This document shows positions 2,854-56,497 of a stretch of DNA of 64,000 nucleotides, piece after piece; the first letter of the stretch is position 1; the number at the start of each line of letters is the position of its first letter. The stretch is from an uncultured Sphingopyxis sp. (GTDB lineage Bacteria > Pseudomonadota > Alphaproteobacteria > Sphingomonadales > Sphingomonadaceae): the NCBI GenBank assembly GCA_966250105.1, contig CBINGC010000015.1, forward strand, positions 2,496 to 66,495, in the 5' to 3' direction. Below the pieces are notes generated by a model. That model did no database searches, was not told the origin of the DNA, and saw nothing but the letters and a program-made list of their open reading frames with translations. The position numbers and the translations under genes are program-made.

Positions 2854-4023
2854 ATGCGCGCCACCCCCGACTTCGATTTCGCGCTCGGCGAAACCGCCGA
2901 CATGATCCGCGATACGACCGCCCGCTTCGCCGACGAACAGATCGCGCCGCTCGCGGCAAAGGCCGATGCGCAGGACTGGTTTCCGCGCGAAGAGCTATGG
3001 ACGCAGATGGGCGCGCTCGGCCTGCACGGCATCACCGTCGAGGAAGAATATGGCGGGCTCGGCCTCGGCTATCTCGAGCATGTCATCGCCGTAGAGGAAG
3101 TCAGCCGCGCATCGGCCGCGATCGGTCTTTCCTATGGCGCGCATTCGAACCTGTGCGTCAACCAGATCCGCCGCTGGGGCAACGCCGATCAGAAAGCAAA
3201 ATATCTCCCCAAGCTGATCTCGGGCGAGCATGTCGGCAGTCTCGCGATGTCCGAAGCGGGCGCCGGCAGCGACGTCGTGTCGATGAAGCTGAAGGCCGAC
3301 AGGGTTCAGGGCGGCTATGTCCTCAACGGCACCAAATTCTGGATCACCAATGCGACCTGTGCCGACACGCTCGTCGTCTATGCCAAGACGAGCCCCGAGG
3401 CGGGATCGCGCGGCATCACCGCCTTCCTGATCGAAAAGGACATGCCGGGGTTCAACATCGGGCAAAAGATCGACAAGGTCGGCATGCGCGGCTCGCCGAC
3501 CGCCGAGCTGGTCTTCACCGATTGCGAAGTGTCCGAAGACCAGGTCATGGGGCCGGAGAATGGCGGCGTCGGCGTGCTGATGTCGGGGCTCGATTACGAG
3601 CGCGTCGTGCTCGCCGGGCTCCAGCTCGGCATCATGCAGGCATGCCTCGATACGGTCATCCCTTACGTGCGCGAGCGCAAGCAGTTCGGCAAGCCGATCG
3701 GCTCGTTCCAGCTGATGCAGGCGAAGGTCGCCGACATGTATGTCATGCTCCAGTCGGCGCGTTCCTATGTTTACAACGTCGCGAAAGCCTGCGACGCGGG
3801 GCAGACGACGCGCTTCGACGCTGCGGGCTGCATCCTGCTCGCGAGCGAGAATGCGGTGAAGGTCGCGGGCGAAGCGATCCAGGCGCTCGGCGGCGCGGGC
3901 TATACCAAGGACTGGCCGGTCGAACGTTACTGGCGCGACGCCAAGCTGCTCGACATCGGCGCGGGCACGAACGAGATCCGCCGCATGCTGATCGGCCGCG
4001 AGCTGATCGGCGCCGGCGCGTGA
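2854..4023 (+). CDS. ivd: Isovaleryl-CoA dehydrogenase
   Basis: 389-aa acyl-CoA dehydrogenase with the typical IVD N-terminus ([60 protein letters not shown]) and C-terminus ([10 protein letters not shown]). It lies in the same cluster as mccA and mccB. Confidence 0.93.
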
Positions 4024-4713: not shown

Positions 4714-6807
4714 TCAGCCCCAGACGCGGACGCGCTTGTCGGGCGCGAGGTAGAGCTTGTCGCCTTCCTTGACGTCGAACGCCTTGTACCAGGCGTCGAG
4801 GTTGCGGACGGTGAGCGCGCGATAATTGCCCGGCGCATGGCCGTCGGTCGCGACGCGCGCGCGGAGCGCCTCGTCGCGCATCTTGGTCGCCCAGGTCTGC
4901 GCATAGGCGATGAAGAAACGCTGGTCGCCGGTGAAGCCGCCGATCACCGGCGCGTCCTTGCCGTTCAGCGACGCGCGATACGCGTCATACGCGGCCTGCA
5001 GACCCGCGACGTCGGCGATATTCTCACCCAGCGTCAGCTTGCCGTTCACCGCGAGGTCGGGGAACGGCTTATACGTGTCATATTGCGCGGCGAGCGCCGA
5101 GCCCGCTTCCCCGAACTTCTTGAGGTCGGCGGCGGTCCACCAGTTGCGCAGTGCCCCCGTCGAGTCGAACGCCGCGCCATTATTGTCGAAACTGTGGCTG
5201 ATCTCGTGGCCGATGACGGCGCCGATCGCGCCATAGTTGTAGGCCGGGTCGGCCTTGGCGTTGAAGAAGGGCGGCTGGAGGATCGCGGCGGGGAAGTTCA
5301 GCGCGTTCTGCACCGGCAGGTTGACCGCGTTGACCGTCTGTGGGGTCATCCACCATTCGCCCTTGTCCATCGGCTTGCCGATCTTGGCGAGCTGGTGCGC
5401 ATATTCCGCCTTTTGCCCCGCGACCTCGTTCGCATAGGCGTTGTCGGCGCTGACGCTATAGCTGCCATAGTCGCGCCAGCTTTCGGGATAGCCGACGCCG
5501 ACGACGATCGTCTCGACCTTCTTGATCGCTTCCTTCTTCGTTTCGGGCGCCATCCAGTCGATGCCGTTCACGCGCGTCGCAAAAGCCGCCTTGATACCCT
5601 TCACCATGTCCCCGACTTCGGCCTTGGCGGAGGCGGGGAAATATTTCTCGGCATAGACGCGGCCGACCGCGTCGCCGAGGTCGGTGTTCAGCGCATCGAG
5701 CGCGCGCTTGTCGCGGCTGCGCTGCTGCGGTGTGCCCGCAAGCGTCGTGCCGTAAAAAGCGAAGTGCGCGCTGTCGATCGCGCTCGGCAGCACGTCACTA
5801 TGGCTGTTGATCTGGTGGAACGTCAGCCAGTCCTTCCACGCATCGAGCGGCTCCGACGCCACAAGCGCCGACAGGCCGGTGATCGCGTTCGCATGATAGG
5901 CGCCGAACTTGCCCGCCTTGTCGAGCTTCGCCGCGGCAAAATAGGCATCCCAGTCGATGCCGGGCGCCTTCTTCGCGAAATCGGCCTTCGTCCAGACGTC
6001 GGCCGATTGAGTGAAGTCCTCGCTCTGTTCGCGGCTGGCGTGCGCGCGCGCGATCTTGAGTTCGAGGTCGTAGATGCGCTTCGCCTTCGCCGCGGCGTCG
6101 CTCTGCCCCGCTGCGCTCAGCAGCTTTTCGATATAGGCCTGATAGTCGGTGCGGATCGCCGCCATCTTCGGATCGGCCGACAGATAATATTCGCGCTCGG
6201 GAAGCCCCAGCCCGCCCTGCAACATATAGGGGATCACTTCGCCCGGGGTCGCGAGCCCTTGAGTCACGAAAACACCGAAGAGATTCTCGGTGCCAAAGTC
6301 GGTCGCGTTGAGCGGGTCGACGTCGGCGCGGGTCTGTTCGCCGAGGACCTTCGACAGCGTCGCCTTGTCGGCGATCGCGGCGAAACGCGCGAGGTCGGCT
6401 TCGACCGGCTTCATACCCGCGGCGTCGATCGCCGGCCTGTTCATATAGGCTTTGTAGAAAGCGGCGATGCGGCCTTCGTCGGTGCCCGGTTCGCCGCCCT
6501 TCTGGACGATCGCGCCGACGAGTTCGCGGACGCGCTTCTCGGTTTCGAGAAAGGCGATGTAGAAAGCGCCGATCGAGGAACGGTCGGCGGGGATTTCAGT
6601 CGTCTTTTGCCAATTGCCGTTCGCATAGGCGTAGAAATCGTCGCCCGGCTTCACGCTGGTATCCATCGCGGCCTTGCTGATGCCGAGTTCGGTCCCGACG
6701 GTGTAGGCGGCGGCGGCCTTTTCGGCTTGGTCGCCCTTCGAACAGGCGACGGGTCCCGCGACGATCGCAGCGGTCGAAAGCAATATGGCGAAGGCGGCTT
6801 TTTTCAT
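4714..6807 (-). CDS. M13-family zinc metallopeptidase (PepO / endothelin-converting-enzyme-like), lipoprotein
   Basis: HEISH (HExxH) and ENIADVAGL (ExxxD) motifs, about 700 aa. The start is placed at the ATG at 6807 (MKKAAFAILLSTAAIVAGPVAC, signal peptide with lipobox) rather than the track start at 6963. Confidence 0.9.
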   Translation of the reverse strand: MKKAAFAILLSTAAIVAGPVACSKGDQAEKAAAAYTVGTELGISKAAMDTSVKPGDDFYAYANGNWQKTTEIPADRSSIGAFYIAFLETEKRVRELVGAIVQKGGEPGTDEGRIAAFYKAYMNRPAIDAAGMKPVEADLARFAAIADKATLSKVLGEQTRADVDPLNATDFGTENLFGVFVTQGLATPGEVIPYMLQGGLGLPEREYYLSADPKMAAIRTDYQAYIEKLLSAAGQSDAAAKAKRIYDLELKIARAHASREQSEDFTQSADVWTKADFAKKAPGIDWDAYFAAAKLDKAGKFGAYHANAITGLSALVASEPLDAWKDWLTFHQINSHSDVLPSAIDSAHFAFYGTTLAGTPQQRSRDKRALDALNTDLGDAVGRVYAEKYFPASAKAEVGDMVKGIKAAFATRVNGIDWMAPETKKEAIKKVETIVVGVGYPESWRDYGSYSVSADNAYANEVAGQKAEYAHQLAKIGKPMDKGEWWMTPQTVNAVNLPVQNALNFPAAILQPPFFNAKADPAYNYGAIGAVIGHEISHSFDNNGAAFDSTGALRNWWTAADLKKFGEAGSALAAQYDTYKPFPDLAVNGKLTLGENIADVAGLQAAYDAYRASLNGKDAPVIGGFTGDQRFFIAYAQTWATKMRDEALRARVATDGHAPGNYRALTVRNLDAWYKAFDVKEGDKLYLAPDKRVRVWG

Positions 6808-6953
6808 AAGAATGACCTTGTTTTTAAGCGGGCATGCAGGGGGCATAGGCCTGTGACGAATTGGTTTCAACGCCAACCATTTTCGGCCTGCGGTCCTTGT
6901 CGCTCGACGAGCGGCGGGATAGTCCGGCCCGACTTCAGAGGAGATTTCGAAAC

Positions 6954-8552
6954 GTGAGCGCACCTGTTCTGGGCACGATGGTCAACGCGGAGAGCGACAC
7001 GTTCCACGCCAATGCCGCGCACAATCGCGGCTTACGCGACGAGCTTTACGCGCGCGTCGCCGAAGCCGGGCTTGGCGGCAACGAGAAGTCGCGCGAGCGC
7101 CACACGAGCCGCGGCAAGCTGCTGCCACGCCAGCGCGTCGAGCGGTTGCTCGATCCGGGCTCGCCCTTCCTCGAAATCGGCCAGCTCGCGGCGTGCGACA
7201 TGTATGAGGGTGAGGTGCCGGGCGCGGGCATGATCGCGGGCATCGGCCGCGTGTCGGGGCGGCAGACGATGATCGTGTGCAACGATGCGACGGTGAAGGG
7301 CGGCACTTATTATCCGATGACGGTGAAGAAGCATCTTCGCGCACAGGAGATCGCCGAGGCGAACCGCCTGCCGTGCGTCTACCTCGTCGATTCGGGCGGC
7401 GCGAACCTGCCGCATCAGGACCAGGTGTTTCCCGACCGCGACCATTTCGGGCGCATCTTCTTCAATCAGGCGAACATGTCGGCGAAACGCATCCCACAGA
7501 TCGCGTGCGTGATGGGAAGCTGCACCGCAGGGGGTGCCTATGTCCCCGCGATGAGCGACGAAACCGTCATCGTGCGGGGTCAGGGCACGATCTTCCTCGC
7601 CGGCCCCCCGCTGGTGAAGGCCGCGACGGGCGAGGAGATCAGCGCCGAGGATCTCGGCGGCGGCGACCTCCACGCGAAGAAATCGGGCGTCGTCGACCAT
7701 CTCGCCGAAAATGACGAACATGCGCTGACGATCGTGCGCGATATCGTCAGCCATCTCGGAGCCGACGATGGCTTCAAGGTCGAGATGAAGGAACCGCGGC
7801 CGCCGAAATATGACCTCGAAGAGCTTTACGGCATCATTCCGCAGGACGTTCGCGCGCCCTATGACGTGCACGAGGTCATCGCGCGCATCGTCGACGGCAG
7901 CGAGTTCCACGAGTTCAAGGCGAATTACGGCAGCACGCTCGTCTGCGGCTTCGCGCATATCTGGGGCATTCCCGTCGCGATCCTTGCGAACAATGGCGTG
8001 CTGTTCAGCGAGAGCGCGGTCAAGGGCGCGCATTTCATCGAACTGGCGCAGCAGCGGCGCATCCCCCTGCTCTTCCTTCAGAATATCAGCGGCTTCATGG
8101 TCGGCGGCAAATATGAGGCCGAGGGCATCGCCAAGCATGGCGCCAAGCTGGTGACCGCGGTCGCGACCGCGACGGTGCCGAAGATCACCGTGCTGATCGG
8201 CGGCAGCTTTGGCGCGGGCAATTACGGCATGTGCGGGCGCGCTTACTCGCCCCGCTTCCTGTTCACATGGCCCAATGCGCGGATCAGCGTGATGGGCGGC
8301 GAACAGGCGGCGTCGGTGTTGGCAACCGTCCACCGCGACGCCGACAAATGGACGCCGGAGGAGGCCGAGGCCTTCAAGGCGCCGATCCGCCAGAAATATG
8401 AGGATGAAGGCAACCCCTATCACGCCACCGCGCGCCTCTGGGACGACGGCATCATCGACCCCGCGCAGACCCGCGACGTGCTCGGGCTCGCTTTTGCGGC
8501 AACGCTGAACGCCCCGGTCGAGGACCGCGGCTTCGGGCTGTTCAGGATGTGA
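6954..8552 (+). CDS. mccB: 3-methylcrotonyl-CoA carboxylase beta (carboxyltransferase) subunit
   Basis: Acyl-CoA carboxyltransferase sequence ([27 protein letters not shown]...[14 protein letters not shown]...). The start is probably the in-frame GTG at 6954 ([27 protein letters not shown]); the alternative is the ATG at 6978. Confidence 0.92.
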
Positions 8553-8556
8553 TGCG

Positions 8557-8997
8557 ATGCAAAGTCTTGTAAATTCAATTGTTCAGAACCAGACCCTTAC
8601 CGCGCTCTCCATCCTGAGCGGGCTGATTGCGTTAATCGTGTTTGGCTATCAACTCATGAAGCGGGCCCACGCCTTATTTCAAGGGCGAATGGATAGAGTA
8701 ACCGAACGAAATATAACAGACGCGCGAAAAGGCATCGATAACGCACCCTATCTGGTAGCCGTTCTCTTTAATCACGCGATAATATTGGCTGTTTTTGTTT
8801 GGTTTTATTCAATAGTTAAAAACCTAAGAGCTGAAGTTTTGGCCTCGAGCACTCAATCTGAAGCCGTGAATTTATTATCCATAATCCTCGTGGTTTTAAT
8901 GAGTGTTTTATCATTACTCATCGGTGATAGAGGTGCCGATATTTGGCTAATTTCTCGAAGAGTAATTCGCGAGACGAAAGAACGAGACGGCGAATGA
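8557..8997 (+). CDS. AT-rich orphan ORF encoding a 146-aa predicted 3-TM membrane protein, inserted between mccB and mccA
   Basis: The frame stays open for 146 codons in a locally AT-rich block. The ATG lies 4 nt after the mccB stop, and an AGGA is 8-11 nt upstream of it. The stop overlaps the mccA ATG (ATGA at 8994..8997). Hydrophobic segments are LTALSILSGLIALIVFGY, YLVAVLFNHAIILAVFVWFYSIV and LLSIILVVLMSVLSLLIG. Confidence 0.7.
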   Translation: MQSLVNSIVQNQTLTALSILSGLIALIVFGYQLMKRAHALFQGRMDRVTERNITDARKGIDNAPYLVAVLFNHAIILAVFVWFYSIVKNLRAEVLASSTQSEAVNLLSIILVVLMSVLSLLIGDRGADIWLISRRVIRETKERDGE

Positions 8998-10835
8998 TCA
9001 ACTCCCTCCTCATCGCCAATCGCGGCGAAATCGCCTGCCGTATCATCCGCACTGCGCGCGAGATGGGCATAAGAACCGTTGCGGTCTATTCGGACGCCGA
9101 CGCCAAGGCGCTGCATGTGCGCGAGGCCGACGCGGCCGTGCATATCGGGCCTTCGCCGGCGCGCGAATCCTATCTGATCGGCGAGAAGATCATCGCCGCC
9201 GCGAAAGCGACTGGCGCCGAGGCGATCCATCCGGGCTATGGCTTCCTCTCCGAAAATGCCGAGTTCGCGCAGGCGGTCGCCGATGCGGGCCTCGTGTGGG
9301 TCGGCCCGAAGCCTTCGTCGATCACCGCCATGGGGCTGAAGGATGCCGCAAAGAAGTTGATGGCCGATGCCGGGGTGCCGGTGACGCCCGGCTATATGGG
9401 CGAAAATCAGAACCCCGCTTTCCTCGCCGAACAGGCGGCCGAAATCGGCTACCCCGTGCTGATCAAGGCGGTGGCGGGCGGCGGCGGCAAGGGGATGCGC
9501 AAGGTGGATACCGCGGCGGATTTCATCGACGCGCTCGCCTCATGCCAGCGCGAGGCAGCGGCATCGTTCGGCAATGATCATGTGCTGATCGAGAAATATA
9601 TCCTGACCCCGCGCCATATCGAAGTGCAGGTGTTCGGCGACACGCACGGCAATGTCGTCCATCTGTTCGAGCGCGACTGCTCACTTCAGCGGCGGCATCA
9701 GAAGGTCATCGAGGAGGCCCCCGCCCCCGGCATGGACGAAGCGACGCGCGCCGACCTCTGCGCCGCCGCGGTGCGCGCCGCAAAGGCGGTCGACTATGTC
9801 GGCGCGGGAACGATCGAGTTCATCGCCGACGGGTCGGAGGGCCTCCGCGCCGATCGCATCTGGTTCATGGAAATGAACACGCGGCTGCAGGTCGAGCATC
9901 CGGTGACGGAGGAAATCACCGGCGTCGATCTCGTCGAATGGCAGCTGCGCGTTGCCTCCGGCGAGCCGATTCCGCTCGCGCAGGAAGAACTCGCGATCAA
10001 CGGCTGGGCGATGGAGGCGCGGCTTTACGCGGAAGACCCGGCAAAAGGCTTCCTGCCCTCGATCGGCACGCTCGAACTCTTCCAACTCGCCGAGCATAGC
10101 GGCCGCGTCGACACCGGCGTCTATGAAGGCGCCGAAGTGTCGCCCTTCTATGACCCGATGATCGCCAAGGTCATCGCTTGGGGCGAGGACCGCGAGGAAG
10201 CGCGCGAACTTCTGTCGGAGATGCTGGAGGACAGCGCGATCTGGCCGGTGAGGACCAACTCGGCCTTTCTGATCAATGCGCTCGATCATCCCGATTTCGT
10301 GGCGGGTACGGTCGATACCGGCCTCATCGGCCGCGACGGCGACGCCATGGCCGAGGAGGCGGTGCCGACCACGCAGGCGCTGACGAACGCCGCAATGGCG
10401 ATGGTGCCGCGCGCGTTGCAAGCGGGCTTCCGCCTCAACGCGCCCGACGTGCGCAGCGCGCCCTTCCTGCTCGACGGCAAGCGCGTCGAGGTCGAACTCC
10501 ACGGCCCCGGCGCCGAGGAACCCGCGCCCGCGATGCTCGTCGCCGAGAATGGTTCGGTGTGGCAGCTTGCGCCGTGGCGCGCCGACGCGAGCGCCGGCGG
10601 CGCGGCGGGCGACGGCGCTATCCTCTCGCCGATGCCCGGCAAGGTGATCGCGGTCGATGTCGCTGCGGGCGACAAAGTGACCAAGGGGCAGAAATTGCTC
10701 ACGCTCGAAGCGATGAAGATGGAGCATAGCCTGACCGCGCCGTTCGACGGCATCGTCGCCGAACTCAATGCGACCGCGGGCGCGCAGGTGCAGGTCGAAG
10801 CGCTGCTCGCGCGGATCGAGAAGGAAGACGCATAA
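8994..10835 (+). CDS. mccA: 3-methylcrotonyl-CoA carboxylase alpha subunit (biotin carboxylase + biotinyl carrier domain)
   Basis: [26 protein letters not shown] biotin-carboxylase N-terminus, ATP-grasp core, and the C-terminal biotinylation motif EAMKMEH. The start is the ATG at 8994 (residue 18 of track ORF 8943..10835). Confidence 0.93.
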
Positions 10836-11287
10836 TGGCCGGCAAATATTTCGACGAGTGGGCGATCGGCGACACGCTGACCCACGAAATCCGCCGCACC
10901 GTCACAGAAACCGACAATCTGCTGTTCACGACGATGACGCACAATCCGCAGCCGCTCCACCTCGATGTCGAGGCGGCGAAGGCGTCGGAGTTCGGCCAGA
11001 TCCTCGTCAACGGCACTTTCACCTTCAGCCTGATGGTCGGGCTGTCGGTCGGCGACACGACGCTCGGCACGCTCGTCGCGAACCTCGGCTATGACAAGCT
11101 CGTCATGCCCAAGCCGGTGTTCATAGGCGACACGCTTCGGGCCGAATCCGAGGTCGTTGGTCTCAAGGAGTCCAAATCGCGGCCGAATGCGGGTATCGTG
11201 ACCTTCCTGCACCGTTGCCTCAACCAGCGCGATGAAGTCGTCTGTCAGTGCGAACGCTCGGCTTTGATCAAGAAAACTGCACAATAA
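10835..11287 (+). CDS. MaoC-like (R-specific hot-dog fold) enoyl-CoA hydratase/dehydratase
   Basis: 150-aa single hot-dog protein ([45 protein letters not shown]). Its ATG overlaps the mccA stop (TAATG). Confidence 0.82.
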
Positions 11288-11373: not shown

Positions 11374-11387
11374 AGTAGGAAAGATTG

Positions 11388-12239
11388 ATGCGCCTCCGCT
11401 CCCTCCTCTTCGTTCCCGGCGACCGGCCCGAACGCTTCGCCAAGGCCGCGGCGTCGGGCGCAGACGCGATCATCCTCGATCTCGAGGATTCGGTTGCGCT
11501 CGCGAACAAGGAAGCGGCGCGCAGCGCGGTCGCCGACTATCTTTCGGGCGAGCGGGAGGTCATCACGCTGGTGCGCGTCAACCCGCTCGACGGCCATTTG
11601 ACCGCGGCCGACATCGCCGCGATCTCTGCGGCCCGCCCCGACGCGATCATGTTGCCCAAGGCGGAAGGCGCGCCGAGCATCCTGCAACTCGACACCATCC
11701 TGCGCAGCGAATCCGTTCAGGGCGCCTCGCTGCCCGCGATCCTGCCCATCGCGACCGAAACGCCCGCCGCAATCTTCACGCTCGGCAGCTACCGCGAAGT
11801 GAAGGATCGCCTGCTCGGTCTGACCTGGGGCGCCGAGGACCTGCCCGCCGCGATCGGCGCGACGACCAGCCGGCACGACGACGGCAGTTACACCGCGCCC
11901 TATGAAATCGCGCGCACGCTGACCCTGTTCGCGGCGCACGGCGCGAACACCGCCGCGATCGATACCGTGTTTCCCGCGATCAAGGACGAGGCCGGCCTTG
12001 CCGCTTATGCCGCCCGCGCGCGGCGCGACGGCTTTACCGGGATGATGGCGATCCACCCCTCACAGGTCGGCCCGATCAATGCGGCCTTCACGCCCTCGAC
12101 CGAAGAGGTGGCGCGCGCGCAGGCGATCGTCGATGCATTCGCGGCCAACCCCGGGGTCGGCGTGCTCCAAGTCGATGGCAAGATGGTCGACGCGCCGCAC
12201 CTCAAGCAAGCGCATCATATATTGTCGCTGGCGGATTGA
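11388..12239 (+). CDS. CitE / HpcH-HpaI family beta-hydroxyacyl-CoA lyase-like protein
   Basis: MRLRSLLFVPGDRPERFAKAAASGADAIILDLEDSV...ILPIATETPAAI...GMMAIHPSQV is the typical citrate-lyase-beta / malyl-CoA-lyase-like signature. ATG at 11388; the track start at 11385 is a TTG. Confidence 0.85.
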   Translation: MRLRSLLFVPGDRPERFAKAAASGADAIILDLEDSVALANKEAARSAVADYLSGEREVITLVRVNPLDGHLTAADIAAISAARPDAIMLPKAEGAPSILQLDTILRSESVQGASLPAILPIATETPAAIFTLGSYREVKDRLLGLTWGAEDLPAAIGATTSRHDDGSYTAPYEIARTLTLFAAHGANTAAIDTVFPAIKDEAGLAAYAARARRDGFTGMMAIHPSQVGPINAAFTPSTEEVARAQAIVDAFAANPGVGVLQVDGKMVDAPHLKQAHHILSLAD

Positions 12240-44643: not shown

Positions 44644-44739
44644 GCGGCAGCTCCCGGCTGGCGCTTATGTCGAGCTTAGCCGCACCAATTGCAAGTTTTC
44701 GTGTTCGAAGCCGATGGACCCTCGAGGCCGGCAACGCCG

Positions 44740-46056
44740 TTATTTTGCGCCGATACCGTGAACAACCACCAAGACCGTCCTGAACAACACGACGAGATCG
44801 AGCCACAACGAGAAATTCTTGATATAATAGAAGTCGTACCGCAGCTTGTCATGAACCTCGCTGATTCCGGCCACATGTCCTTGGTTGACCTGCGCCCAAC
44901 CCGTAATTCCCGGCCGGACGATGTGGCGATAGGAATAGAAGGGAATCTCCCGCTCATACCATTCGGACAGCGGGCGCGCTTCGGGACGGGGACCAATCCA
45001 GCTCATCTCGCCGCGGAGGATATTGAGGATCTGCGGCAGTTCGTCGATACGAGATTGGCGAAGGAAGCGACCGATCCGGGTGACGCGGTCGTCGTCATCG
45101 CGGGTGATTGCCGCATGGACCTTGTCGTCGCCGTCCTCCGGCGCGGCATCGCGCATCGTGCGGAATTTGAGCACGCGAAAGGATTTCCCGCGATAGCCGA
45201 TCCGTTCTTGTCGAAAAAAGACCGATCCGGGCGAATCCAGGCGGATTAGCAACGCGACGACGGCCAGCGGCACCAAAAGAATGGGCAACGCGACCATCGT
45301 CAATGATATGTCAATCGCGCGCTTCATCTTCGCATAAGGATTGCTGGGAAGCAGCGATCCCAGACCGTTTTCGGACAGATGTTCGATGCGAACCTTGCCG
45401 GTCTGCGCCTCCCAAACCTGCTTATAGTGATAGACGCCAATCCCGTTGAGTGCCGCGGTCGCAAAAGCCCGCTCCCATTCCGGGGGATGGTCGAAATGGA
45501 GATCGGCGACGAGAACGGCGTTGGGGCCCGAAGGTACGCGCGGCTGGGTCAGGACCACCGAATGGCTTGCGACCGCGTCCCGCATCCGATCGATGTTCCC
45601 GCCCGGCACGAGGTGATAGAGGATATTATCACCCCGGCGCTCGACGGCATTCATCAGGAAGCGCGCCATAAGGCTCGCCGCGAAGGTCAGAAAGAGCAGC
45701 GCCCCGCTGTAAGGCGCGCGCAGCAACAGGATGAGAACCGTCGCGCAGCTATAGGTCGCGGCGAAGCTGGGAAAAATATATCGTGCTCCAACCGTTCCCG
45801 GGAACTCCCCGAACTTGCGGATCAAAACCACCGAGACCATTATCGCGAGCGCCGCGAGCAGAACGGTATTCTGCAAAAGCAGGCTTCTGCTCGCCGCGGC
45901 TACGTCGCCAAGGAAGAAAATCACGACGGGCAACAAAACGCCTACGCCAAGACAAACGACTAACTGCACGCGGAGCGAGGAACAGAACCGGACCCAGCTG
46001 AGGCGCTGGCCGGTCGATTGCCCCTCGACGGGTGATCTTCTGGTCATGTCGTGCAT
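44740..46056 (-). CDS. Polyprenyl-phosphate hexose-1-phosphate transferase (WbaP/ExoY-like priming glycosyltransferase)
   Basis: C-terminal bacterial sugar transferase domain (KFRTMRDAA...RIDELPQILNILRGEMSWIGPRPE...GITGWAQV) with N-terminal TM segments. ATG at 46056, preceded by GGAAGA; the track start at 46092 is a TTG. Confidence 0.88.
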   Translation of the reverse strand: MHDMTRRSPVEGQSTGQRLSWVRFCSSLRVQLVVCLGVGVLLPVVIFFLGDVAAASRSLLLQNTVLLAALAIMVSVVLIRKFGEFPGTVGARYIFPSFAATYSCATVLILLLRAPYSGALLFLTFAASLMARFLMNAVERRGDNILYHLVPGGNIDRMRDAVASHSVVLTQPRVPSGPNAVLVADLHFDHPPEWERAFATAALNGIGVYHYKQVWEAQTGKVRIEHLSENGLGSLLPSNPYAKMKRAIDISLTMVALPILLVPLAVVALLIRLDSPGSVFFRQERIGYRGKSFRVLKFRTMRDAAPEDGDDKVHAAITRDDDDRVTRIGRFLRQSRIDELPQILNILRGEMSWIGPRPEARPLSEWYEREIPFYSYRHIVRPGITGWAQVNQGHVAGISEVHDKLRYDFYYIKNFSLWLDLVVLFRTVLVVVHGIGAK

Positions 46057-46081
46057 GTCCGAACTTTCTTCCGTCCCCGGC

Positions 46082-47185
46082 TCAAACCGCAACGCGGCGA
46101 TCGTAATTGGCTTCGACCCAATCGCGATAGCTGCCGTCCATCACCGCACGCCACCAGGATTCATTGTCGAGATACCAGCGCAGCGTCGCTCCGAAATAAT
46201 CGGCGAACTCGCGGGCCGGCGCATAGCCCAATTCGGACCGTATCTTACGTTCATCGATTGCATAGCGGCGGTCGTGTCCAAGCCGATCCGTGACATGTTT
46301 CTTGAGCGTCGCCGTCGCCTTCCCCTTCACCGGGGCAGCGTCGGGAAAGCGCCGCGCAAGGTCGCCGTCCTCGGCGAAAGCCTGGTCGACCGCAGCGCAC
46401 AGCGTGTCGATCACATCGAGATTGGGCAGTTCCGCCCCACCGCCGATGTTGTAGCATTCGCCCACCCTGCCTTTGTCGAGGACAAGCTCGATGCCCCGGC
46501 AATGATCCTCGACGTAAAGCCAGTCGCGCACCTGTTGTCCGTCGCCGTAAATCGGCAAATCGCGCCCATGCAACGCGTTGATGAGGAAAAGCGGGATCAG
46601 CTTTTCAGGAAACTGGTACGGGCCATAATTGTTCGAGCAGTTCGATGTCGTGACCTGCAAGCCGTAAGTGTGGTGATAGGCCCGAACCAGGTGATCCGAA
46701 GATGCCTTCGATGCGGCATAGGGCGAATTGGGAGCGTAGGGGGTCGTTTCGCTGAACGCCGGATCATCGCGGCCAAGGGTTCCATACACCTCGTCGGTCG
46801 AGACGTGGTGAAAACGGTGCGGCTTGCCGCTTCCCTTATCCAGCCACTCGGCTTTCGCCGCCTTCAGCAGGTCGTGCGTCCCCAGCACATTCGTCTCGAT
46901 AAAGGCGTCAGGGCCGTGAATCGATCGATCGACGTGGCTTTCGGCTGCAAAATGCACCAGCGTGTCGATGGCATGATCGCGCAGCACCCGCTGAACGAGC
47001 GCACCATCGCGAATGTCGCCCTGAACGAATTGGACGTTGTCGATATCGTCCAGGTTGGCGCGATTTCCAGCATAGGTCATCGCGTCGAGGACGACCAGCC
47101 CGTCATCCGAATGGCGCTCGCGCCAATGACGGACGAAATTGGCGCCGATGAATCCGGCTCCTCCGGTTACGAGCAGGTTAGACAT
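46082..47185 (-). CDS. rmlB: dTDP-glucose 4,6-dehydratase
   Basis: MSNLLVTGGAGFIGANFV...STDEVYG...YAASKASSDHLVRAY. Confidence 0.93.
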   Translation of the reverse strand: MSNLLVTGGAGFIGANFVRHWRERHSDDGLVVLDAMTYAGNRANLDDIDNVQFVQGDIRDGALVQRVLRDHAIDTLVHFAAESHVDRSIHGPDAFIETNVLGTHDLLKAAKAEWLDKGSGKPHRFHHVSTDEVYGTLGRDDPAFSETTPYAPNSPYAASKASSDHLVRAYHHTYGLQVTTSNCSNNYGPYQFPEKLIPLFLINALHGRDLPIYGDGQQVRDWLYVEDHCRGIELVLDKGRVGECYNIGGGAELPNLDVIDTLCAAVDQAFAEDGDLARRFPDAAPVKGKATATLKKHVTDRLGHDRRYAIDERKIRSELGYAPAREFADYFGATLRWYLDNESWWRAVMDGSYRDWVEANYDRRVAV

Positions 47186-48069
47186 TCTGTCTGCTTTCCT
47201 TCATGTTTTTCATGACCCGCCAGCGAAGCGAGCGCGTCGCGCAGCTCCGCTCGCCAGTGCCGGGACGGTGCGCCGAGAAGCTTCCAGCAACTCGTCTTGT
47301 CAAGGACGGAGAAAGCGGGCCTTCGCGCGGGAGTGGGATAGTCGACCGCCGGAATCGGGATGACGGGGACATCGCGGTCCAAAAGACCGACCGCCCGCGC
47401 TTCTTCCGCTATCGCCACGGCGAAATCATACCAGGATGCAACCCCGGCATCCGTGAAATGGTGGACTCCCCGGACATTCTTTTCGACGAGCCGCCAAGTA
47501 GCGCGCGCCAGCGACAAGGCGTGCGTCGGGGTTCCCACCTGATCGGCGACGACGCGTACTTCGTCGCGTTCGGCCATCAGTCGCAACATGGTACCCAGAA
47601 AACTCGCGCCACCCGCCGAATAAACCCAGCTCGTGCGGAGAATCAGATTCGCCGGAATTGCCGCCGCAGCGGTCTCCCCGGCCAGCTTGCTGCGGCCATA
47701 GACACTCAGCGGTGCCGGCCGGTCATCGGGAGAATAGGGCCGCGACGACAAACCGTCGAAGATGAAATCGGTCGAATAATGAACCAACCGCACACCCCGC
47801 GCCGCGCAGGCGTCGGCCAGATTGGCAACCGCTGCGCCATTGATCCGGTCGGCGCTGTCCGCGTCGTTTTCGGCTCGATCGACCGCCGTATAAGCCGCGG
47901 CGTTAATCAGGATATCAGGTATCGCCGCGTCGATCGCTGCGCGCGCGGCATCAAAATCGGCAATATCGACCGCATCGCGCCCCACGACCGCAATGTCCCA
48001 GCCTTGCGGCGCGGTCGCGACCAAGGCCTTGCCGACCTGCCCGTTCCCCCCTGTGATCAATATCTTCAT
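47167..48069 (-). CDS. rmlD: dTDP-4-dehydrorhamnose reductase
   Basis: MKILITGGNGQVG...INAAAYTAVDRAE...STDFIFDG...YGRSKLAGE. Confidence 0.9.
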   Translation of the reverse strand: MKILITGGNGQVGKALVATAPQGWDIAVVGRDAVDIADFDAARAAIDAAIPDILINAAAYTAVDRAENDADSADRINGAAVANLADACAARGVRLVHYSTDFIFDGLSSRPYSPDDRPAPLSVYGRSKLAGETAAAAIPANLILRTSWVYSAGGASFLGTMLRLMAERDEVRVVADQVGTPTHALSLARATWRLVEKNVRGVHHFTDAGVASWYDFAVAIAEEARAVGLLDRDVPVIPIPAVDYPTPARRPAFSVLDKTSCWKLLGAPSRHWRAELRDALASLAGHEKHEGKQTECLTCS

Positions 48070-48611
48070 TCGTAAATTTCAGCTTCCGATAATGACCGTC
48101 CTGCCTCGTCTTTCGCGGACAACCGCGGCGTCATTCCATCCAGAGGCCACTCGATCCCGATCGTTGGATCGTCCCACCGAATGCTGCGCTCGTCCTTGGG
48201 CGAATAATATTCAGTGCACTTATAGAGAAAGTCCGTCCCATCCTCCAACGTCAAGAAACCATGCCCCAGACCCGGCGGAACCCACAGCATACGCTTGTTG
48301 TCGGCAGACAGTTCCACGCCGACCCATTTCCCGAAGCTGGGCGACGCCGCGCGCAGATCGACCACCGCATCGAATACACGTCCCGCAGCTACGCGGACGA
48401 GCTTTCCCTGCGGCTGGTTGACTTGATAGTGCAGACCTCGCAGCACGCCGCGCGCGGAGCGGCTATGATTGTCCTGAACGAACGCCGCATTGATCCCCGC
48501 CTCGGCAAAGCGCGCCGCGTTCCACGATTCCATGAAGAAGCCGCGGTCGTCGCCGAATACCGCGGGCTCGATGATGACGACATCCTCAATGGCAGTGCGC
48601 GTCAGTTTCAT
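48066..48611 (-). CDS. rmlC: dTDP-4-dehydrorhamnose 3,5-epimerase
   Basis: FGDDRGFFMESWN...RGLHYQ...GKLVRV..G.VFDVAVDLR...PPGLGHGF. The start is the ATG at 48611 ([11 protein letters not shown]), overlapping the rmlA stop. Confidence 0.9.
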   Translation of the reverse strand: MKLTRTAIEDVVIIEPAVFGDDRGFFMESWNAARFAEAGINAAFVQDNHSRSARGVLRGLHYQVNQPQGKLVRVAAGRVFDAVVDLRAASPSFGKWVGVELSADNKRMLWVPPGLGHGFLTLEDGTDFLYKCTEYYSPKDERSIRWDDPTIGIEWPLDGMTPRLSAKDEAGRSLSEAEIYE

Positions 48612-49492
48612 CACTTGCCCGCCGCGAGTTGCAACGCCAGATATCGACCATAGCCGCTTTTCTTGAGCGGTTCCGCCAGCCGTTCGAGCTGGCCATCGTC
48701 GATAAATCCCATTCTCCATGCGATCTCTTCGGGACAAGAGATTTTCAGCCCCTGTCTTTCCTCGACGATGCGGACGTAATTGCCGGCATCAAGGAGCGAG
48801 CCGTGCGTTCCGGTGTCAAGCCAGGCAAAGCCGCGCCCCATGATCTCGACGTTGAGCTTGCTCTCGTCGAGATAGAGCCGGTTGAGATCGGTAATTTCCA
48901 ACTCCCCCCGCGCCGACGGCTTGATGCTTCGCGCGCGCTCGACCACCGTATCGTCGTAGAAATACAGCCCGGTTACCGCATAGTGCGATCTGGGGTTGGC
49001 CGGCTTTTCCTCGATCGTTTCGGCGCGACCTTCGGCATCGAAGGACACGACGCCATAGGCAGTGGGATCGGCGACATAATAGCCGAATACCGTGGCGCCC
49101 GAGGTGCGGGCGTCCGCCGCGCGCAGCAATTCGGGAAAACCGTGACCGTAGAAGATATTGTCACCGAGGACGAGCGCCGAGGGCTCGCCTCCGATAAAGT
49201 CGGCGCCGATGGTGAAGGCTTGCGCGAGCCCCTCGGGTTTCGGCTGGACCGCATATTCGATCGCCAGCCCCCATTGCGCCCCGTCGCCGAGAAGCGCCTT
49301 GAAACCCTCCTGATCCTGCGGCGTGGTAATGATCAGAATGTCACGAATGCCGCCCATCATCAGGACCGACAGCGGATAATAGATCATCGGCTTGTCATAG
49401 ATGGGCATCAATTGCTTGCTGACCGGCAAGGTCAGCGGATGGAGCCGTGTGCCCGATCCGCCTGCCAAAATTATCCCCTTCCGCATGGTCAT
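48611..49492 (-). CDS. rmlA: Glucose-1-phosphate thymidylyltransferase
   Basis: [42 protein letters not shown]. The ATG at 49492 overlaps the upstream glycosyltransferase stop (ATGA). Confidence 0.93.
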
Positions 49493-50637
49493 ACTCCGTT
49501 GCTCGCCAATGCTGGCGGGTCGTCGTGGATGGCGGCGCCGGCCCTGGCAGGTTCCGCGCAGCCGATAAGTTCGAAATAGTCCCGGGCGATCACCGACCAG
49601 CGATAGCGGCGGTCGGCGATCTCTTTCATGATACCGGGGCGCGGTTCCAAGTCGCCCGTGGCGATCCGTTCGAGCAACGCGGCGAGTTGGTCGGCGCTCG
49701 CGAAATATTCGGCGGCGTCCTCGGTCGTCGCGCGGTTGAATCCGCAGTCGAACGCCAAGATCATCGCGTGGCAATGCATCGCCTCGACGAGCGAGGGATT
49801 GGTGCCCCCGGCGGAATGGCCGTGCATGTAGAGCGCCGCATTGTCGTGCAGCGTCCGCAATTTGCCCGCGTCGTAAATGGGATCGAGCAGGTGCAGGTGC
49901 GGCACGTCCGCATAGGTCCGCCGCAGGTCCTGACCATAGGAGCTGGCGTTCCAGTTGCCGACGAAGACCAGCGGCAGCGCATTCCCACGCGCGAAAGCCT
50001 CGAGGATCAGCGCCACATTATTCTCGGGCTCGATCCGACAGATCGACAATGCATAGCGCGAAGGCAAGCCGAGTTCGGCCGCGCTGGCGCTTGCCTCTAT
50101 TTCCAGCACATGGTCGCCACCATAGGGAATGACGCTGCATTCGACGTCATAGGACGCCGTGATATGGCGCGCGATCTCGACATTGTCGGCGATGACGGCG
50201 TGCGACCATTTCGACGCGATCCGCTCCGAAAGGCGCAGGAACCAGCGCGATATCCCCTTCCACTTCGCACGTTTCCATTCGATGCCGTCGACGTTGGTAA
50301 TGATGCGCATGGGTGACAGCAACCGCAACAGCGGGATCCCGATCGCGCCCGAGACGCCGAGCACCAGCAGCACGTCCGCGTCCCGGCGCCAGGCCGACAG
50401 CATCGACCATAAATCATAGGGCAGGCTCTGCGGCCCGTTCGCGTTGAGCGGCACATAGACGAGCGAAGCGCCGTGGAAGCGCCCCGGCCTTTCGTCATAG
50501 GCCTTGGCGCTGCAATAGACGGTCATCGCGCACGCAACGCCCTGCGCCTCGTGATAGCGCGCCAGATTGTCGACGAGCGTTTCGAAACCGCCGTAGCGGG
50601 CCGGCACGCCGACCGACCCTATGATCGCGACCCTCAT
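49489..50637 (-). CDS. Glycosyltransferase with a DUF1972-type N-terminus (GT4; probable rhamnosyltransferase class)
   Basis: [28 protein letters not shown] is the characteristic DUF1972 start. The rest is a GT-B fold. The alternative ATG is at 50652. Confidence 0.82.
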
Positions 50638-50638
50638 T

Positions 50639-51550
50639 CTACCCGCCCGCATTCCGTGCGATCATCAGCTGTCCGATATAGCGGAAGCCCACGGCGTGCA
50701 GCAGCTTGTCGATCGGCCACAGCAACGCATAGACCGCCCATTTTGACCGGTTGGCGATGCGGCGAAGCGGATCGACAATGCCGCGATGGCGAAATTCGCC
50801 GCCGCGCATGCTGGCCGAATCCTCGCTGCGGAATCGGACCCCGGTATAGTTGCGGACGAGATCGAACAGGCTGCTCTGCTCCGCCGAACTGACCGGATCG
50901 AGCCCGAAGCGCGTTGCCATGCTGCGCAGCGAGCGCGGGCTGAACCGCGACAGATGGTGCGGCGGAAAGTCCAGCGGAGGTCGCCAGCTCATCTCGTTGT
51001 TGGGCGCGGAGATCACCAGATGACCGCCGGGCTTGAGCAATGCGACGCAATCGCGCAGCACCGGATCGAAATCGTCGAGATGCTCGATAACTTCGAACAT
51101 GGTCACGACATCGAAGCGGCGGCCCTCGGCCAGCAGGTTCGCGACCGAACGATTCGAAATCCGTTCGTCGAGCCCGAACTGCCGCCGACCCCAGTCGAGC
51201 GCGGTACGGTTGAAATCGACGCCGTGGGCGTCGAATCCCCGGTCGCGGAGCTGGCGGACGAAAAACCCGTCGAAGCACCCGACGTCGAGCGTCTCGCCTC
51301 CGGAAGGCACTCGCTTTCCGATAAAGTCGAGCGCGCGCCGGTGATGCCACTGAATTCGGTCCCCGGCTTCGGGAAAAAGCTCAAGGTCGTCGAGATAATC
51401 GGTGTCGCCCTCATAATCGGTCGACTGCGTGGCGTCGTCGCTTTTGAAATATTCATAACCACAGGAATCGCAGCGGAAATGGTCATATTTCCCGAAATTG
51501 CCGATCGCCTGCATCGATGCGGCGCAACAGGCGCACGAAATCTGCATCAT
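50639..51550 (-). CDS. Class I SAM-dependent methyltransferase with an N-terminal Cys-rich (zinc-ribbon-like) segment
   Basis: MMQISCACC...FRCDSCGYEY followed by motif I (TLDVGCFDGFF) and VVTMFEVIEHLDD. The ATG at 51550 overlaps the upstream stop (ATGA). Confidence 0.8.
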   Translation of the reverse strand: MMQISCACCAASMQAIGNFGKYDHFRCDSCGYEYFKSDDATQSTDYEGDTDYLDDLELFPEAGDRIQWHHRRALDFIGKRVPSGGETLDVGCFDGFFVRQLRDRGFDAHGVDFNRTALDWGRRQFGLDERISNRSVANLLAEGRRFDVVTMFEVIEHLDDFDPVLRDCVALLKPGGHLVISAPNNEMSWRPPLDFPPHHLSRFSPRSLRSMATRFGLDPVSSAEQSSLFDLVRNYTGVRFRSEDSASMRGGEFRHRGIVDPLRRIANRSKWAVYALLWPIDKLLHAVGFRYIGQLMIARNAGG

Positions 51551-52713
51551 CGTCCGGTCTCCAAACCGTAAAGTGAAAAGGTCAGGGCGTTCAGATGCGC
51601 CACGTCGAATTTCTCCTCGCAATAGCGGCGCGACAGCAAACGGGCACCCTCTATCATCGCCGGATCGATCCGCATCATCGCCTCGGCCAGCGATTCCGCG
51701 CTGCGCGGCGCGCAGAGGAAGCCGTTGCTGCCGTCGATGACGGTCTCGCGGCAACCGGGGACATCGGTAGCGACGATCGTCTTGCCAAGCGCCAGCGCTT
51801 CAATCAGCGACCGCGGCACGCCTTCGCGATAGGAAGGCAGCGCGACAATGTCCGACGCGATCATATAATCGCGGATATTGTCCTTGAACCCAAGATAGTG
51901 AACGCCATGCGCGCGAGCGAACTCCGCGACGTTATCGGCGGAAAAATGCCCGCTCGTCGCGCTGTCGATCAGGCCGAGGTGCACGAAGCAATATCGCCCC
52001 GGCGCCGCCTCGCCGATCCGGCGCGCGGCTTCATAATATTCGAGAAACCCCTTTTCGCGCACCCCGCGCGCAGGAAAGAGCACGACCATCCGGTTCGCCA
52101 GGTCGGCGCCAATCTCGTGCGCGAGCATCGCGCGCATTCGGGCCGTCATATCCGCGCCCGGCAGTTCGAATTCGGACAGGTCGATGCCCGAACCGTTGGT
52201 GAGTTGCGCCTGCCCCCGCCTCACCGCGCCAAGCGAAACCATTTCTTCCATATCGTCGGGGTTCTGGAACAGCACCCTGACGCGATGCGACAGCGCGATA
52301 CGATATTGCGCCACCAGCGCGCGGCGAAGGAGCCGCGCGCGGGCATCGTCGCGGATGAACAAGGTTCCCAGCCCGGTCACCGTCATCACGATCCGCGACA
52401 CCCGCGCCAGCCGTGCTGCGAGCGACCCGTAGATCACCGACTTGTGGGTGAAACCGTGGACCACGTCGGGCGCTTCGTCGCGGATGATGCGCCACAGCCG
52501 GTGAAGCAGGCCCAGATTCTGGAACGGCGAAACCGAATGGCGCGCGAATTCGACCAGATGGATGCGTACGCCCATCGCGCGCAGCCGCTCGATATAATCG
52601 CCGTCCGGACAGATGCCGACGACCTCGTTCCCCGCATCGACAAGCGCACGGATCAGCGGATTGCGAAAGACATAAAGAGCGCCGTCGCTGTTACAGACGA
52701 GTAGAACCTTCAT
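51547..52713 (-). CDS. Glycosyltransferase family 4 (GT-B)
   Basis: MKVLLVCNSDGALYVFRNPLIRAL... and the C-terminal EGVPRSLIEALALGKTIVATDVPGCRE (E-x7-E region). The ATG at 52713 overlaps the upstream stop (ATGA). Confidence 0.85.
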   Translation of the reverse strand: MKVLLVCNSDGALYVFRNPLIRALVDAGNEVVGICPDGDYIERLRAMGVRIHLVEFARHSVSPFQNLGLLHRLWRIIRDEAPDVVHGFTHKSVIYGSLAARLARVSRIVMTVTGLGTLFIRDDARARLLRRALVAQYRIALSHRVRVLFQNPDDMEEMVSLGAVRRGQAQLTNGSGIDLSEFELPGADMTARMRAMLAHEIGADLANRMVVLFPARGVREKGFLEYYEAARRIGEAAPGRYCFVHLGLIDSATSGHFSADNVAEFARAHGVHYLGFKDNIRDYMIASDIVALPSYREGVPRSLIEALALGKTIVATDVPGCRETVIDGSNGFLCAPRSAESLAEAMMRIDPAMIEGARLLSRRYCEEKFDVAHLNALTFSLYGLETGR

Positions 52714-53813: not shown

Positions 53814-53849
53814 GGTGGACCTAATGATTGCTGTGAGCCCGGGACCGCC

Positions 53850-55100: not shown

Positions 55101-55105
55101 GGATA

Positions 55106-56428: not shown

Positions 56429-56497
56429 CGCGTTTCCATTCGAAATATCATGGCCATGTCGGTTTCTGCCAACGCCCGGTAAGCGACCTGCCACGGC

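Follow-up and report, generated by a model that had tools for sequence, protein, structure and literature searches.

Why should the two subunit genes of one catabolic enzyme be parted by a small AT-rich gene, and what is that gene? The question is raised by a stretch of 64,000 nucleotides from an uncultured Sphingopyxis sp. (GenBank assembly GCA_966250105.1, contig CBINGC010000015.1, positions 2,496 to 66,495 of the forward strand; hereafter the window), in which a 441-bp open reading frame (ORF), here referred to as the passenger gene, lies between mccB (liuB) and mccA (liuD), the genes encoding the carboxyltransferase (beta) and the biotin carboxylase/biotin carrier (alpha) subunits of methylcrotonyl-CoA carboxylase (MCC). 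The answer proposed here is that the passenger is probably a genuine accessory gene, housed at the mccB/mccA junction of the sphingomonad liu operon, a hypervariable slot with replaceable content, and not a component of the carboxylase. The gene, its neighbours and the sequence elements at its borders are as follows:

8557-8997, + strand: passenger gene, 146 aa, AT-rich, predicted three-helix inner-membrane protein (evidence: the ORF, its composition, homologues found only in the slot, and selection)
6954-8552, + strand: mccB (liuB), methylcrotonyl-CoA carboxylase carboxyltransferase (beta) subunit, 532 aa, GTG start; Pfam Carboxyl_trans, E = 4.9e-156
8994-10835, + strand: mccA (liuD), biotin carboxylase/biotin carrier (alpha) subunit; Pfam Biotin_carb_N, CPSase_L_D2, Biotin_carb_C and Biotin_lipoyl
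8544-8547, + strand: AGGA, a Shine-Dalgarno-like motif in the final mccB codons, 9 nt before the passenger ATG; putative ribosome-binding site
8553-8556, + strand: tgcg, ancestral 4-nt spacer from the mccB stop to the start codon; an identical TGA-tgcg-ATG occurs in the direct junction of the metagenomic locus L045 and at the 5' edge of the Sphingopyxis soli insert

The passenger ATG at 8557 follows the mccB stop codon (TGA, 8550-8552) after 4 nt (tgcg), and its own stop codon (TGA, 8995-8997) overlaps the mccA ATG at 8994-8996 in the sequence ATGA. This placement, including the AGGA, the 4-nt gap and the ATGA overlap, had been described in an earlier reading made from the letters alone (the sequence-only reading) and is confirmed.

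Selection, family and predicted structure of the passenger protein

With 43.1% G+C, the passenger is the lowest-G+C 441-bp stretch of the window (mean, 63.6%), about 5.5 standard deviations under the mean of such stretches, and is flanked by mccB and mccA at 65-66%. The G+C content at codon positions 1/2/3 amounts to 0.51/0.36/0.42, compared to 0.66/0.45/0.84 in mccB and 0.70/0.46/0.83 in mccA. The codon adaptation index (CAI) is 0.23, compared to 0.61-0.80 in the 26 other genes of the window, and 41 of 145 codons (28%) are rare, with a relative adaptiveness <0.1, against 3.6% in the reference genes. The AT-richness previously estimated from hand counts is therefore a strong deviation when windowed G+C and codon adaptation are computed. 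The companion claim, that such a frame is unlikely to stay open by chance, is equally upheld: the probability of 145 open codons at the base composition of the passenger is 1.5e-4, and the frame stayed open in 2 of 20,000 shuffles, with the remaining five frames of the segment carrying 5-17 stop codons.

Purifying selection acts on the passenger protein. For the three closest alleles, the proportion of nonsynonymous differences (pN) is 0.26-0.41 and that of synonymous differences (pS) 0.72-0.86, the corresponding rate ratio (dN/dS) being ~0.2-0.4 where computable, and 43 of 51 invariant residues encoded by degenerate codons show at least one synonymous codon difference. Such conservation of the amino acids through synonymous turnover largely rules out a chance ORF.

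The product had been regarded as an orphan, a status that does not survive deeper searches. A word-indexed search disclosed two relatives at 44-46% identity, and a HMMER search with a three-sequence profile against 1.84 billion representatives retrieved eight clusters at E <= 0.001, comprising proteins of 142-162 aa that align end to end. Together with cluster P0002, from the word-indexed search, the family totals nine clusters with identities of 23-60%, to which a search with a nine-sequence profile added no further clusters. Each cluster is represented on one to five contigs, the only named genome being a metagenome-assembled genome (MAG) of Allosphingosinicella. In nine out of nine clusters the gene stands between an mccB whose product ends in ..FGxFRM* and an mccA whose product starts with M, V or L before a stretch of 11 letters (not shown); the stop codon of the allele overlaps the mccA start or falls just past it in seven of them and just before it in the other two. 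A scan of GTDB genomes with the three-sequence profile, using subfamily-specific patterns by which other alleles could be missed, found only the Allosphingosinicella MAG, a gap that is covered by the exhaustive search of the 1.84 billion protein representatives.

That the product matches no recognisable family was, on the other hand, borne out. The nine members gave no consistent family match in Pfam, NCBIfam, PHROGs and PADLOC (Pfam and NCBIfam down to E = 0.1-10), a profile search of the PDB sequences gave no match, and Foldseek comparison of two AlphaFold2 (AF2) models with PDB and BFVD returned generic long-helix matches with best E values of ~0.1-0.4 (BFVD, E >= 0.13). Two assignments were considered and rejected: DUF3169, which reaches 18.2 bits (cut-off, 31.6) in only one of the nine members, and NCBIfam SLATT_5, below its cut-off at E = 7.6. 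In addition, a tblastn search with the window protein found no match in 50,697 phage records or 72,556 plasmid records, a scan of IMG/VR with the three-sequence profile, which represents the closest subfamily of the window protein, gave no match, and a search of the literature found nothing relevant on a small ORF that separates the mcc/liu subunit genes. By these comparisons, the nine clusters appear to constitute a rare, previously undescribed family of small membrane proteins, whose predicted parts in the window allele are:

8593-8649, + strand: predicted transmembrane helix 1, residues 13-31 (hydropathy, positive-inside rule); the preceding 12-residue N-terminal tail lacks K/R and is predicted to be periplasmic
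8749-8817, + strand: predicted transmembrane helix 2, residues ~65-87, beginning with YLVAVLF-H; the 33-residue loop before it contains 7 K/R and is predicted to be cytoplasmic
8866-8922, + strand: predicted transmembrane helix 3, residues 104-122 (hydropathy, AF2)
8923-8994, + strand: conserved, predicted cytoplasmic C-terminal helix (DRGADIWLISRRVIRE) and acidic tail (alignments)

The distribution of K/R residues, with none in the N-terminal tail, seven in loop 1, none in loop 2 and six in the C-terminal tail, predicts an N-out/C-in topology according to the positive-inside rule; two alleles, P0005 and P0009, display an additional hydrophobic segment in loop 1. The AF2 model built from the nine sequences (predicted local distance difference test score, pLDDT, 83.6) comprises long helices at residues 12-61, 63-96 and 102-145, which, together with hydropathy, supports the three hydrophobic helices and charged tail proposed at the outset. 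The conserved motifs comprise (i) the N-terminal M-[DE]-x-L-x3-I-A-x-N-x2-L-Q-A, (ii) YLVAVLF-H, at the start of helix 2, and (iii) the basic C-terminal helix ISRRVIRE. Beyond this helix, the purine-rich codons of the acidic tail, gaacgagacgg (8980-8990), occupy the position expected for the mccA ribosome-binding site, and in most other alleles the tail codons contain GAGG or AGGA directly before the mccA start; part of the charged tail is thus probably also the ribosome-binding site of mccA.

A slot of changing content between mccB and mccA

The closest named relatives of the window at this locus are Sphingopyxis italica and S. soli, whose MccB proteins (532 aa each) are 96-97% identical to that of the window, an identity that places the window in Sphingopyxis or a very near relative. 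These relatives, and a metagenomic Sphingopyxis, carry other genes at the same position:

S. italica (L098), 5602-5883: 93-aa Barstar-family gene, G+C at third codon positions (GC3) 0.77, overlapping the mccA start
S. soli (L100), 5780-6208: DUF559 (Vsr-like endonuclease domain) gene, GC3 0.67, overlapping the mccA start
metagenomic Sphingopyxis (L102), 5679-6125: DUF559 endonuclease-domain gene, GC3 0.58, overlapping the mccA start

Compared to S. italica, the window aligns at 92% up to position 8554 and at 91% from position 8994, with no alignment in between. A survey of 80 metagenome loci with a close mccB, from which the 29 closest with both subunit genes on the contig were counted, disclosed nine direct junctions (gap <= 14 bp), one short gap and 19 inserts. 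The identified inserts encode SnoaL/lumazine-binding-like secreted proteins, DUF3088, Barstar, an Rce1/CPBP membrane protease, DUF3667, DUF559, BioB and an enoyl-CoA hydratase, and further inserts are AT-shifted ORFs without family. None of the surveyed inserts matched the hidden Markov model (HMM) of the passenger family, including the AT-rich occupants of L044, L036, L051 and L029. The comparison of junctions across relatives that the sequence-only reading called for therefore finds presence and absence varying among close relatives; its view that foreign DNA in a core catabolic operon is exceptional is not sustained, the slot routinely holding unrelated genes in this clade.

The ancestral arrangement can be read from the direct junctions, in which CGGA or AGGA of the mccB 3' end stands directly upstream of the mccA ATG. 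The junction of L045 reads TGA-tgcg-ATGATC, with a spacer identical to that of the window, so that the window insert corresponds to exactly 438 nt, the ORF only, at the mccA ATG. The proposed insertion right at the mccA start is hence supported both by this junction and by the alignment with S. italica, which breaks at 8554 and resumes at 8994. Several unrelated passengers also end in ..ATGATC: because the mccA of this clade begins with ATGATC and therefore has a built-in TGA, one upstream frame in three ends at the mccA start, and the seamless 3' junction needs no special mechanism. The ATGA overlap is real, but the special significance attached to it is not retained.

A search for repeats found only short chance repeats, none of them at the borders, with neither terminal inverted repeats nor a target duplication, and Pfam detects no transposase, integrase or nuclease domain in the passenger, in agreement with what had been noted by eye. 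A mobile element, whether an insertion sequence (IS), a miniature inverted-repeat transposable element (MITE), an integron cassette or a homing-endonuclease gene, was considered and rejected, there being no border repeats, no enzyme domain and an insert consisting of the ORF only.

The passenger alleles are older than their flanks: their synonymous sites are saturated in every pair, whereas the adjacent 339 nt of mccB show dS(NG86) values of 0.48-0.92. Over the last 360 nt of mccB, compared by gapped alignment, nucleotide identity is 0.79-0.90 and shows no significant correlation with ORF identity (rho = -0.28, p = 0.10). Between the window and loci L011/L012, the flanks match at ~90% of nucleotides (766 nt of mccB, 190 nt of mccA) as far as the edges of the ORF, compared to ~37% nucleotide and 28% amino acid identity inside it; the C-terminal 11 letters of MccB (not shown) differ by one residue between the window and L011. 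The Allosphingosinicella allele, by contrast, shares 47% identity with the window allele, though its flanks are less similar. Allele P0008 is 100% identical at the nucleotide level in L094, L095 and L096, with differing outer flanks: L094 differs from L095/L096 by five synonymous mccB differences located 83-137 nt upstream of the allele, and in mccA from ~310 nt downstream, with 34 mismatches in ~220 nt. This pattern would represent either the signature of exchange through the flanks or chimeric assemblies.

The survey also yielded several observations on slots and junctions of relatives. A biotin synthase gene (bioB-like, of the radical S-adenosylmethionine type) lies between mccB and mccA in L036 (1978-2961), L049 (1283-2320) and L051 (582-1631), which places cofactor synthesis inside the operon of a biotin enzyme; in L036 and L051, AT-shifted ORFs without family lie directly 3' of mccB. 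Hairpin-like motifs of the type CCCCGG...GGGGAGG accompany the DUF559 inserts of L100 (~5600-5780) and L102 (~5600-5680) and also occur in the gaps of L015, L023 and L024; they translate as ..PLHHP..GPPP..GED at ORF ends and suggest a repeated small element tied to sphingomonad DUF559 genes. In L009 (~1990-2150), an apparent frameshift near the mccB 3' end makes the gene call run into the passenger, probably an assembly indel.

Expression, function and competing explanations

The geometry of the locus suggests how the passenger might be expressed, retained and exchanged. It would be transcribed from the liu promoter without a promoter of its own: a scan of positions 8400-9100 found no promoter-like site within the passenger and, as terminator signals, only two minimal 5-bp terminator-like hairpins, not above chance, and Rfam at E <= 1 gave only a spurious small nucleolar RNA (snoRNA) match over the passenger. 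The earlier proposal of co-transcription and mccA coupling is consistent with these results. Translation would probably start from the AGGA within the mccB 3' end, and ribosomes ending the passenger would re-initiate at the overlapping mccA ATG (termination-reinitiation at ATGA), with the purine-rich stretch upstream of that ATG sitting inside the acidic tail of the passenger. Passenger expression would thereby be linked to leucine/isovalerate catabolism. A nonsense mutation or an imprecise deletion would exert polarity on mccA, which would help to retain the slot content. Exchange of this content would most likely proceed through homologous recombination between the highly conserved coding sequences on either side.

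As to function, relatives in which the enzyme is conserved lack the passenger or hold unrelated genes in the slot, which makes an MCC subunit or tether unlikely and a lineage-variable accessory role at the membrane more likely. Our best guess, of low confidence, is a protective or immunity-like role, an analogy suggested only by the architecture of the protein, its hypervariability and the Barstar/CPBP-type genes found in the slot of relatives.

Several points weigh against the accessory-gene interpretation. That the family is strictly confined to the slot is equally compatible with a functional link to the carboxylase. The transcription, translation and coupling described above are deduced from gene geometry, and the purine-rich stretch before the mccA of the window is a weak Shine-Dalgarno match. 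The flank comparisons span only 100-770 nt of very conserved coding sequence, and the mosaics of L094-L096, known from short metagenome contigs, may be artefacts of chimeric assembly. In addition, neither a toxin partner nor a match in sequence or fold came out of the searches to back an immunity-like role.

One competing explanation is an accessory subunit or membrane tether of MCC, in which a co-translated membrane anchor would bind the enzyme through its cytoplasmic C-terminal helix. The confinement of all nine clusters to the mccB/mccA slot, a geometry that fits translational coupling, the conserved basic cytoplasmic C-terminal helix ISRRVIRE and the purifying selection on the protein all speak for it. 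Nevertheless, the closest relatives, with MccB 96-97% identical, hold Barstar or DUF559 genes and other close relatives nothing; the alleles are only 23-48% identical, compared to 79-97% identity of the adjacent MccB/MccA ends, and the window and L011, with nearly the same MccB C-terminus, have ORFs only 28% identical, so that no sign of co-evolution is seen; a CAI of 0.23 is unlike that of a stoichiometric partner, and none of the Pfam matches is to a small-subunit family of biotin enzymes. The tether idea, which the sequence-only reading had listed first, is accordingly weakened, and we regard it as quite improbable. A frame-locked spacer without protein function is likewise unlikely. According to this explanation, a premature stop would uncouple mccA or trigger Rho-dependent polarity, and the hydrophobic helices would be a by-product of T-rich sequence, in keeping with the stop-start overlap, the weak mccA ribosome-binding site inside the ORF, the very fast divergence of the protein, its unbiased codon use and the equally seamless joining of unrelated slot passengers. 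It is difficult to reconcile with the excess of pS over pN and the changed codons at 43 of the 51 invariant residues, with a profile homology that extends over nine clusters sharing motifs, a length of 142-162 aa and the same helix pattern, and with a pLDDT of 83.6, which exceeds the expectation for a random sequence.

Two further explanations concern the AT-rich DNA itself. That the frame is open by chance, or that the DNA is instead a non-coding element rich in A+T (an internal promoter, a small RNA or a regulatory site), has next to no credibility: AT-rich tracts can bind nucleoid proteins, yet a frame with P = 1.5e-4 per allele is open in nine divergent alleles, selection acts at the amino acid level, and no promoter-like site, above-chance terminator or Rfam match is found. 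A recent horizontal acquisition from a low-G+C donor, with its composition unadjusted, was the implicit view of the sequence-only reading, and the strikingly foreign composition and codon usage, together with the lack of the family in the closest named relatives, would agree with it. It is nevertheless very unlikely, given that the nine alleles keep GC3 at 0.42-0.57 despite saturated synonymous sites, that the flanks are GC-rich and ~90% conserved up to the borders, and that no homologue occurs outside the slot among the 1.84 billion representatives or, for the window protein or its closest subfamily, in the phage, plasmid and IMG/VR data.

The base composition of the family is unlike that of its hosts. 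All nine alleles are AT-rich (G+C 0.40-0.53, GC3 0.42-0.57), compared to a flank GC3 of 0.78-0.91, and the flanks are GC-rich to the last base at the ORF borders. Judged from these sequences, the family is stably low in G+C, and this cannot be a remnant of recent import, since it persists in every allele through saturated synonymous turnover in host genomes with GC3 ~0.85; the reading of foreign composition as recent arrival fails on this ground. Either the low codon adaptation is selected, for example so that a membrane protein encoded in a well-expressed operon stays scarce, or, more speculatively, the cassette evades a recombination-linked force that enriches G+C elsewhere, because divergent alleles might be unable to recombine internally. 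The GC-biased gene conversion (gBGC) and mutation-bias hypotheses provide the published basis for this idea of escape. A broader and rather doubtful proposal takes retention, composition and origin jointly, with the slot as a natural experiment on how base composition evolves and how genes are retained: (i) the cassette may be kept open and be hard to delete because the downstream enzyme subunit relies on ribosomes arriving through it; (ii) without gBGC or linked selection, the cassette may be stable near an unbiased GC3, with the same recombination-linked force holding the rest of the genome at GC3 ~0.85; and (iii) as a further possibility, the family might have arisen de novo in the slot from T-rich spacer DNA, given that it is present nowhere else.

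Several known systems resemble the passenger in part. ORFans are commonly inserted into native operons, whose promoter they use, although insertions inside pre-existing operons are much rarer than additions at their ends (Price, Arkin and Alm 2006, PMC1480536). Like those genes, the passenger is taxonomically restricted, has an atypical composition, no promoter-like site and probably no functional relation to its neighbours, and its presence and absence among close relatives fit insertion; unlike them, it is wedged between two subunit genes of one enzyme with a stop-start overlap. The patchy, restricted distribution and the atypical composition and codon usage place it with ORFan passengers, from which it departs in that the junction is reused by many unrelated passengers and that its family, of deeply divergent alleles, occurs only there.

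Clusters for O-antigen and capsule synthesis are hypervariable loci of low-G+C cassettes with conserved flanking genes, exchanged by recombination in the flanks. The passenger slot shares with them its sharp borders, alleles older than the flanks, persistent low G+C and mosaic, incongruent content, and differs in being a single 0.44-kb gene in a catabolic operon with no evident surface-exposed product or selective agent. Biotin enzymes offer a second comparison: OadG, MmdD and GcdD are membrane subunits of Na+-pumping decarboxylases, and AccE and PccE are epsilon subunits of actinobacterial acyl-CoA carboxylases, whereas MCC is, to our knowledge, a soluble carboxylase with no known membrane partner. 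The passenger resembles the OadG-type anchors in its small size, its membrane helices and its location in a biotin-enzyme operon; however, no such family is matched by any of the nine members in Pfam or NCBIfam, and the passenger is absent in most close relatives and does not co-vary with the enzyme.

Class I holins and the immunity proteins of pore-forming colicins are small inner-membrane proteins of conflict systems with three or four helices. Like class I holins, the passenger is predicted to have three transmembrane helices, an N-out/C-in topology and a charged C-terminal tail, and like the immunity proteins of pore-forming bacteriocins it would have 3-4 transmembrane helices in 140-160 aa and is hypervariable between strains, a resemblance only; the slot of relatives, moreover, holds Barstar and Rce1/CPBP-type genes reminiscent of such systems. 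Unlike class I holins, its neighbours are liu genes, with no phage or lysis gene close by; its members share no PHROG family, and the window protein or its closest subfamily has no phage or IMG/VR match. Unlike bacteriocin immunity proteins, it is not accompanied by a toxin gene in the operon; Pfam and PADLOC give no match, and the window protein has none among the plasmid records. The likeness to holins and immunity proteins is hence a lead and not a membership.

Compared to these systems, what is new here comprises the position between subunits, the repeated reuse of the junction, a family that occurs as divergent alleles at that junction only, and a stable low G+C. The mccB/mccA junction shows that the border between subunit genes of a core catabolic enzyme can be used repeatedly as a docking site by accessory genes that are unrelated to one another, which would take on the regulation of the operon and be shielded from loss by translational coupling. 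If the low G+C reflects exclusion from recombination, the slot also bears on what maintains the high G+C of bacterial genomes. For annotation, wedged ORFs of this sort should not be read as enzyme subunits.

The liu operon and the remainder of the window

The genes around the slot are listed below:

1850-2752, - strand: LysR regulator, divergent (Pfam)
2854-4023, + strand: acyl-CoA dehydrogenase, probable isovaleryl-CoA dehydrogenase (Pfam; neighbourhood alike in relatives)
between the acyl-CoA dehydrogenase gene and mccB, - strand: M13 peptidase, part of the neighbourhood
10835-11287, + strand: MaoC-type hydratase, probable methylglutaconyl-CoA hydratase, same operon (Pfam MaoC_dehydratas, MC_hydratase)
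11385-12239, + strand: HpcH/HpaI (CitE-like) lyase, probable equivalent of 3-hydroxy-3-methylglutaryl-CoA (HMG-CoA) lyase, same operon (Pfam HpcH_HpaI)

By its domain content, the neighbourhood can be assigned to a leucine-catabolism (liu) cluster, and the gene order through the MaoC-type hydratase is the same in L001, L098 and L102. For mccB, the GTG start at 6954 (532 aa, as in the homologues) is preferred over the TTG at 6861 of the mechanical ORF list (563 aa); the sequence AGAGGAGA upstream of GTG 6954 backs this choice, and the frame from TTG 6861 would overlap the 5' end of the divergent M13 peptidase gene. In S. soli (L100, 8040-8498), a GNAT acetyltransferase gene lies between mccA and the MaoC hydratase gene, which points to a second passenger-tolerant junction in the operon.

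Elsewhere in the window, the only other strongly AT-shifted stretch belongs to a surface-polysaccharide cluster on the - strand (44700-56500), which comprises a sugar transferase (44740-46092), dTDP-rhamnose-pathway genes (46082-49774) and a Polysacc_synt flippase (55106-56494). Surface-polysaccharide clusters are classical exchange-prone, hypervariable loci. The G+C minimum of the cluster, 0.52-0.57 at 53850-55454, holds a 534-aa ORF without Pfam match, possibly a membrane protein of the polymerase or ligase type.

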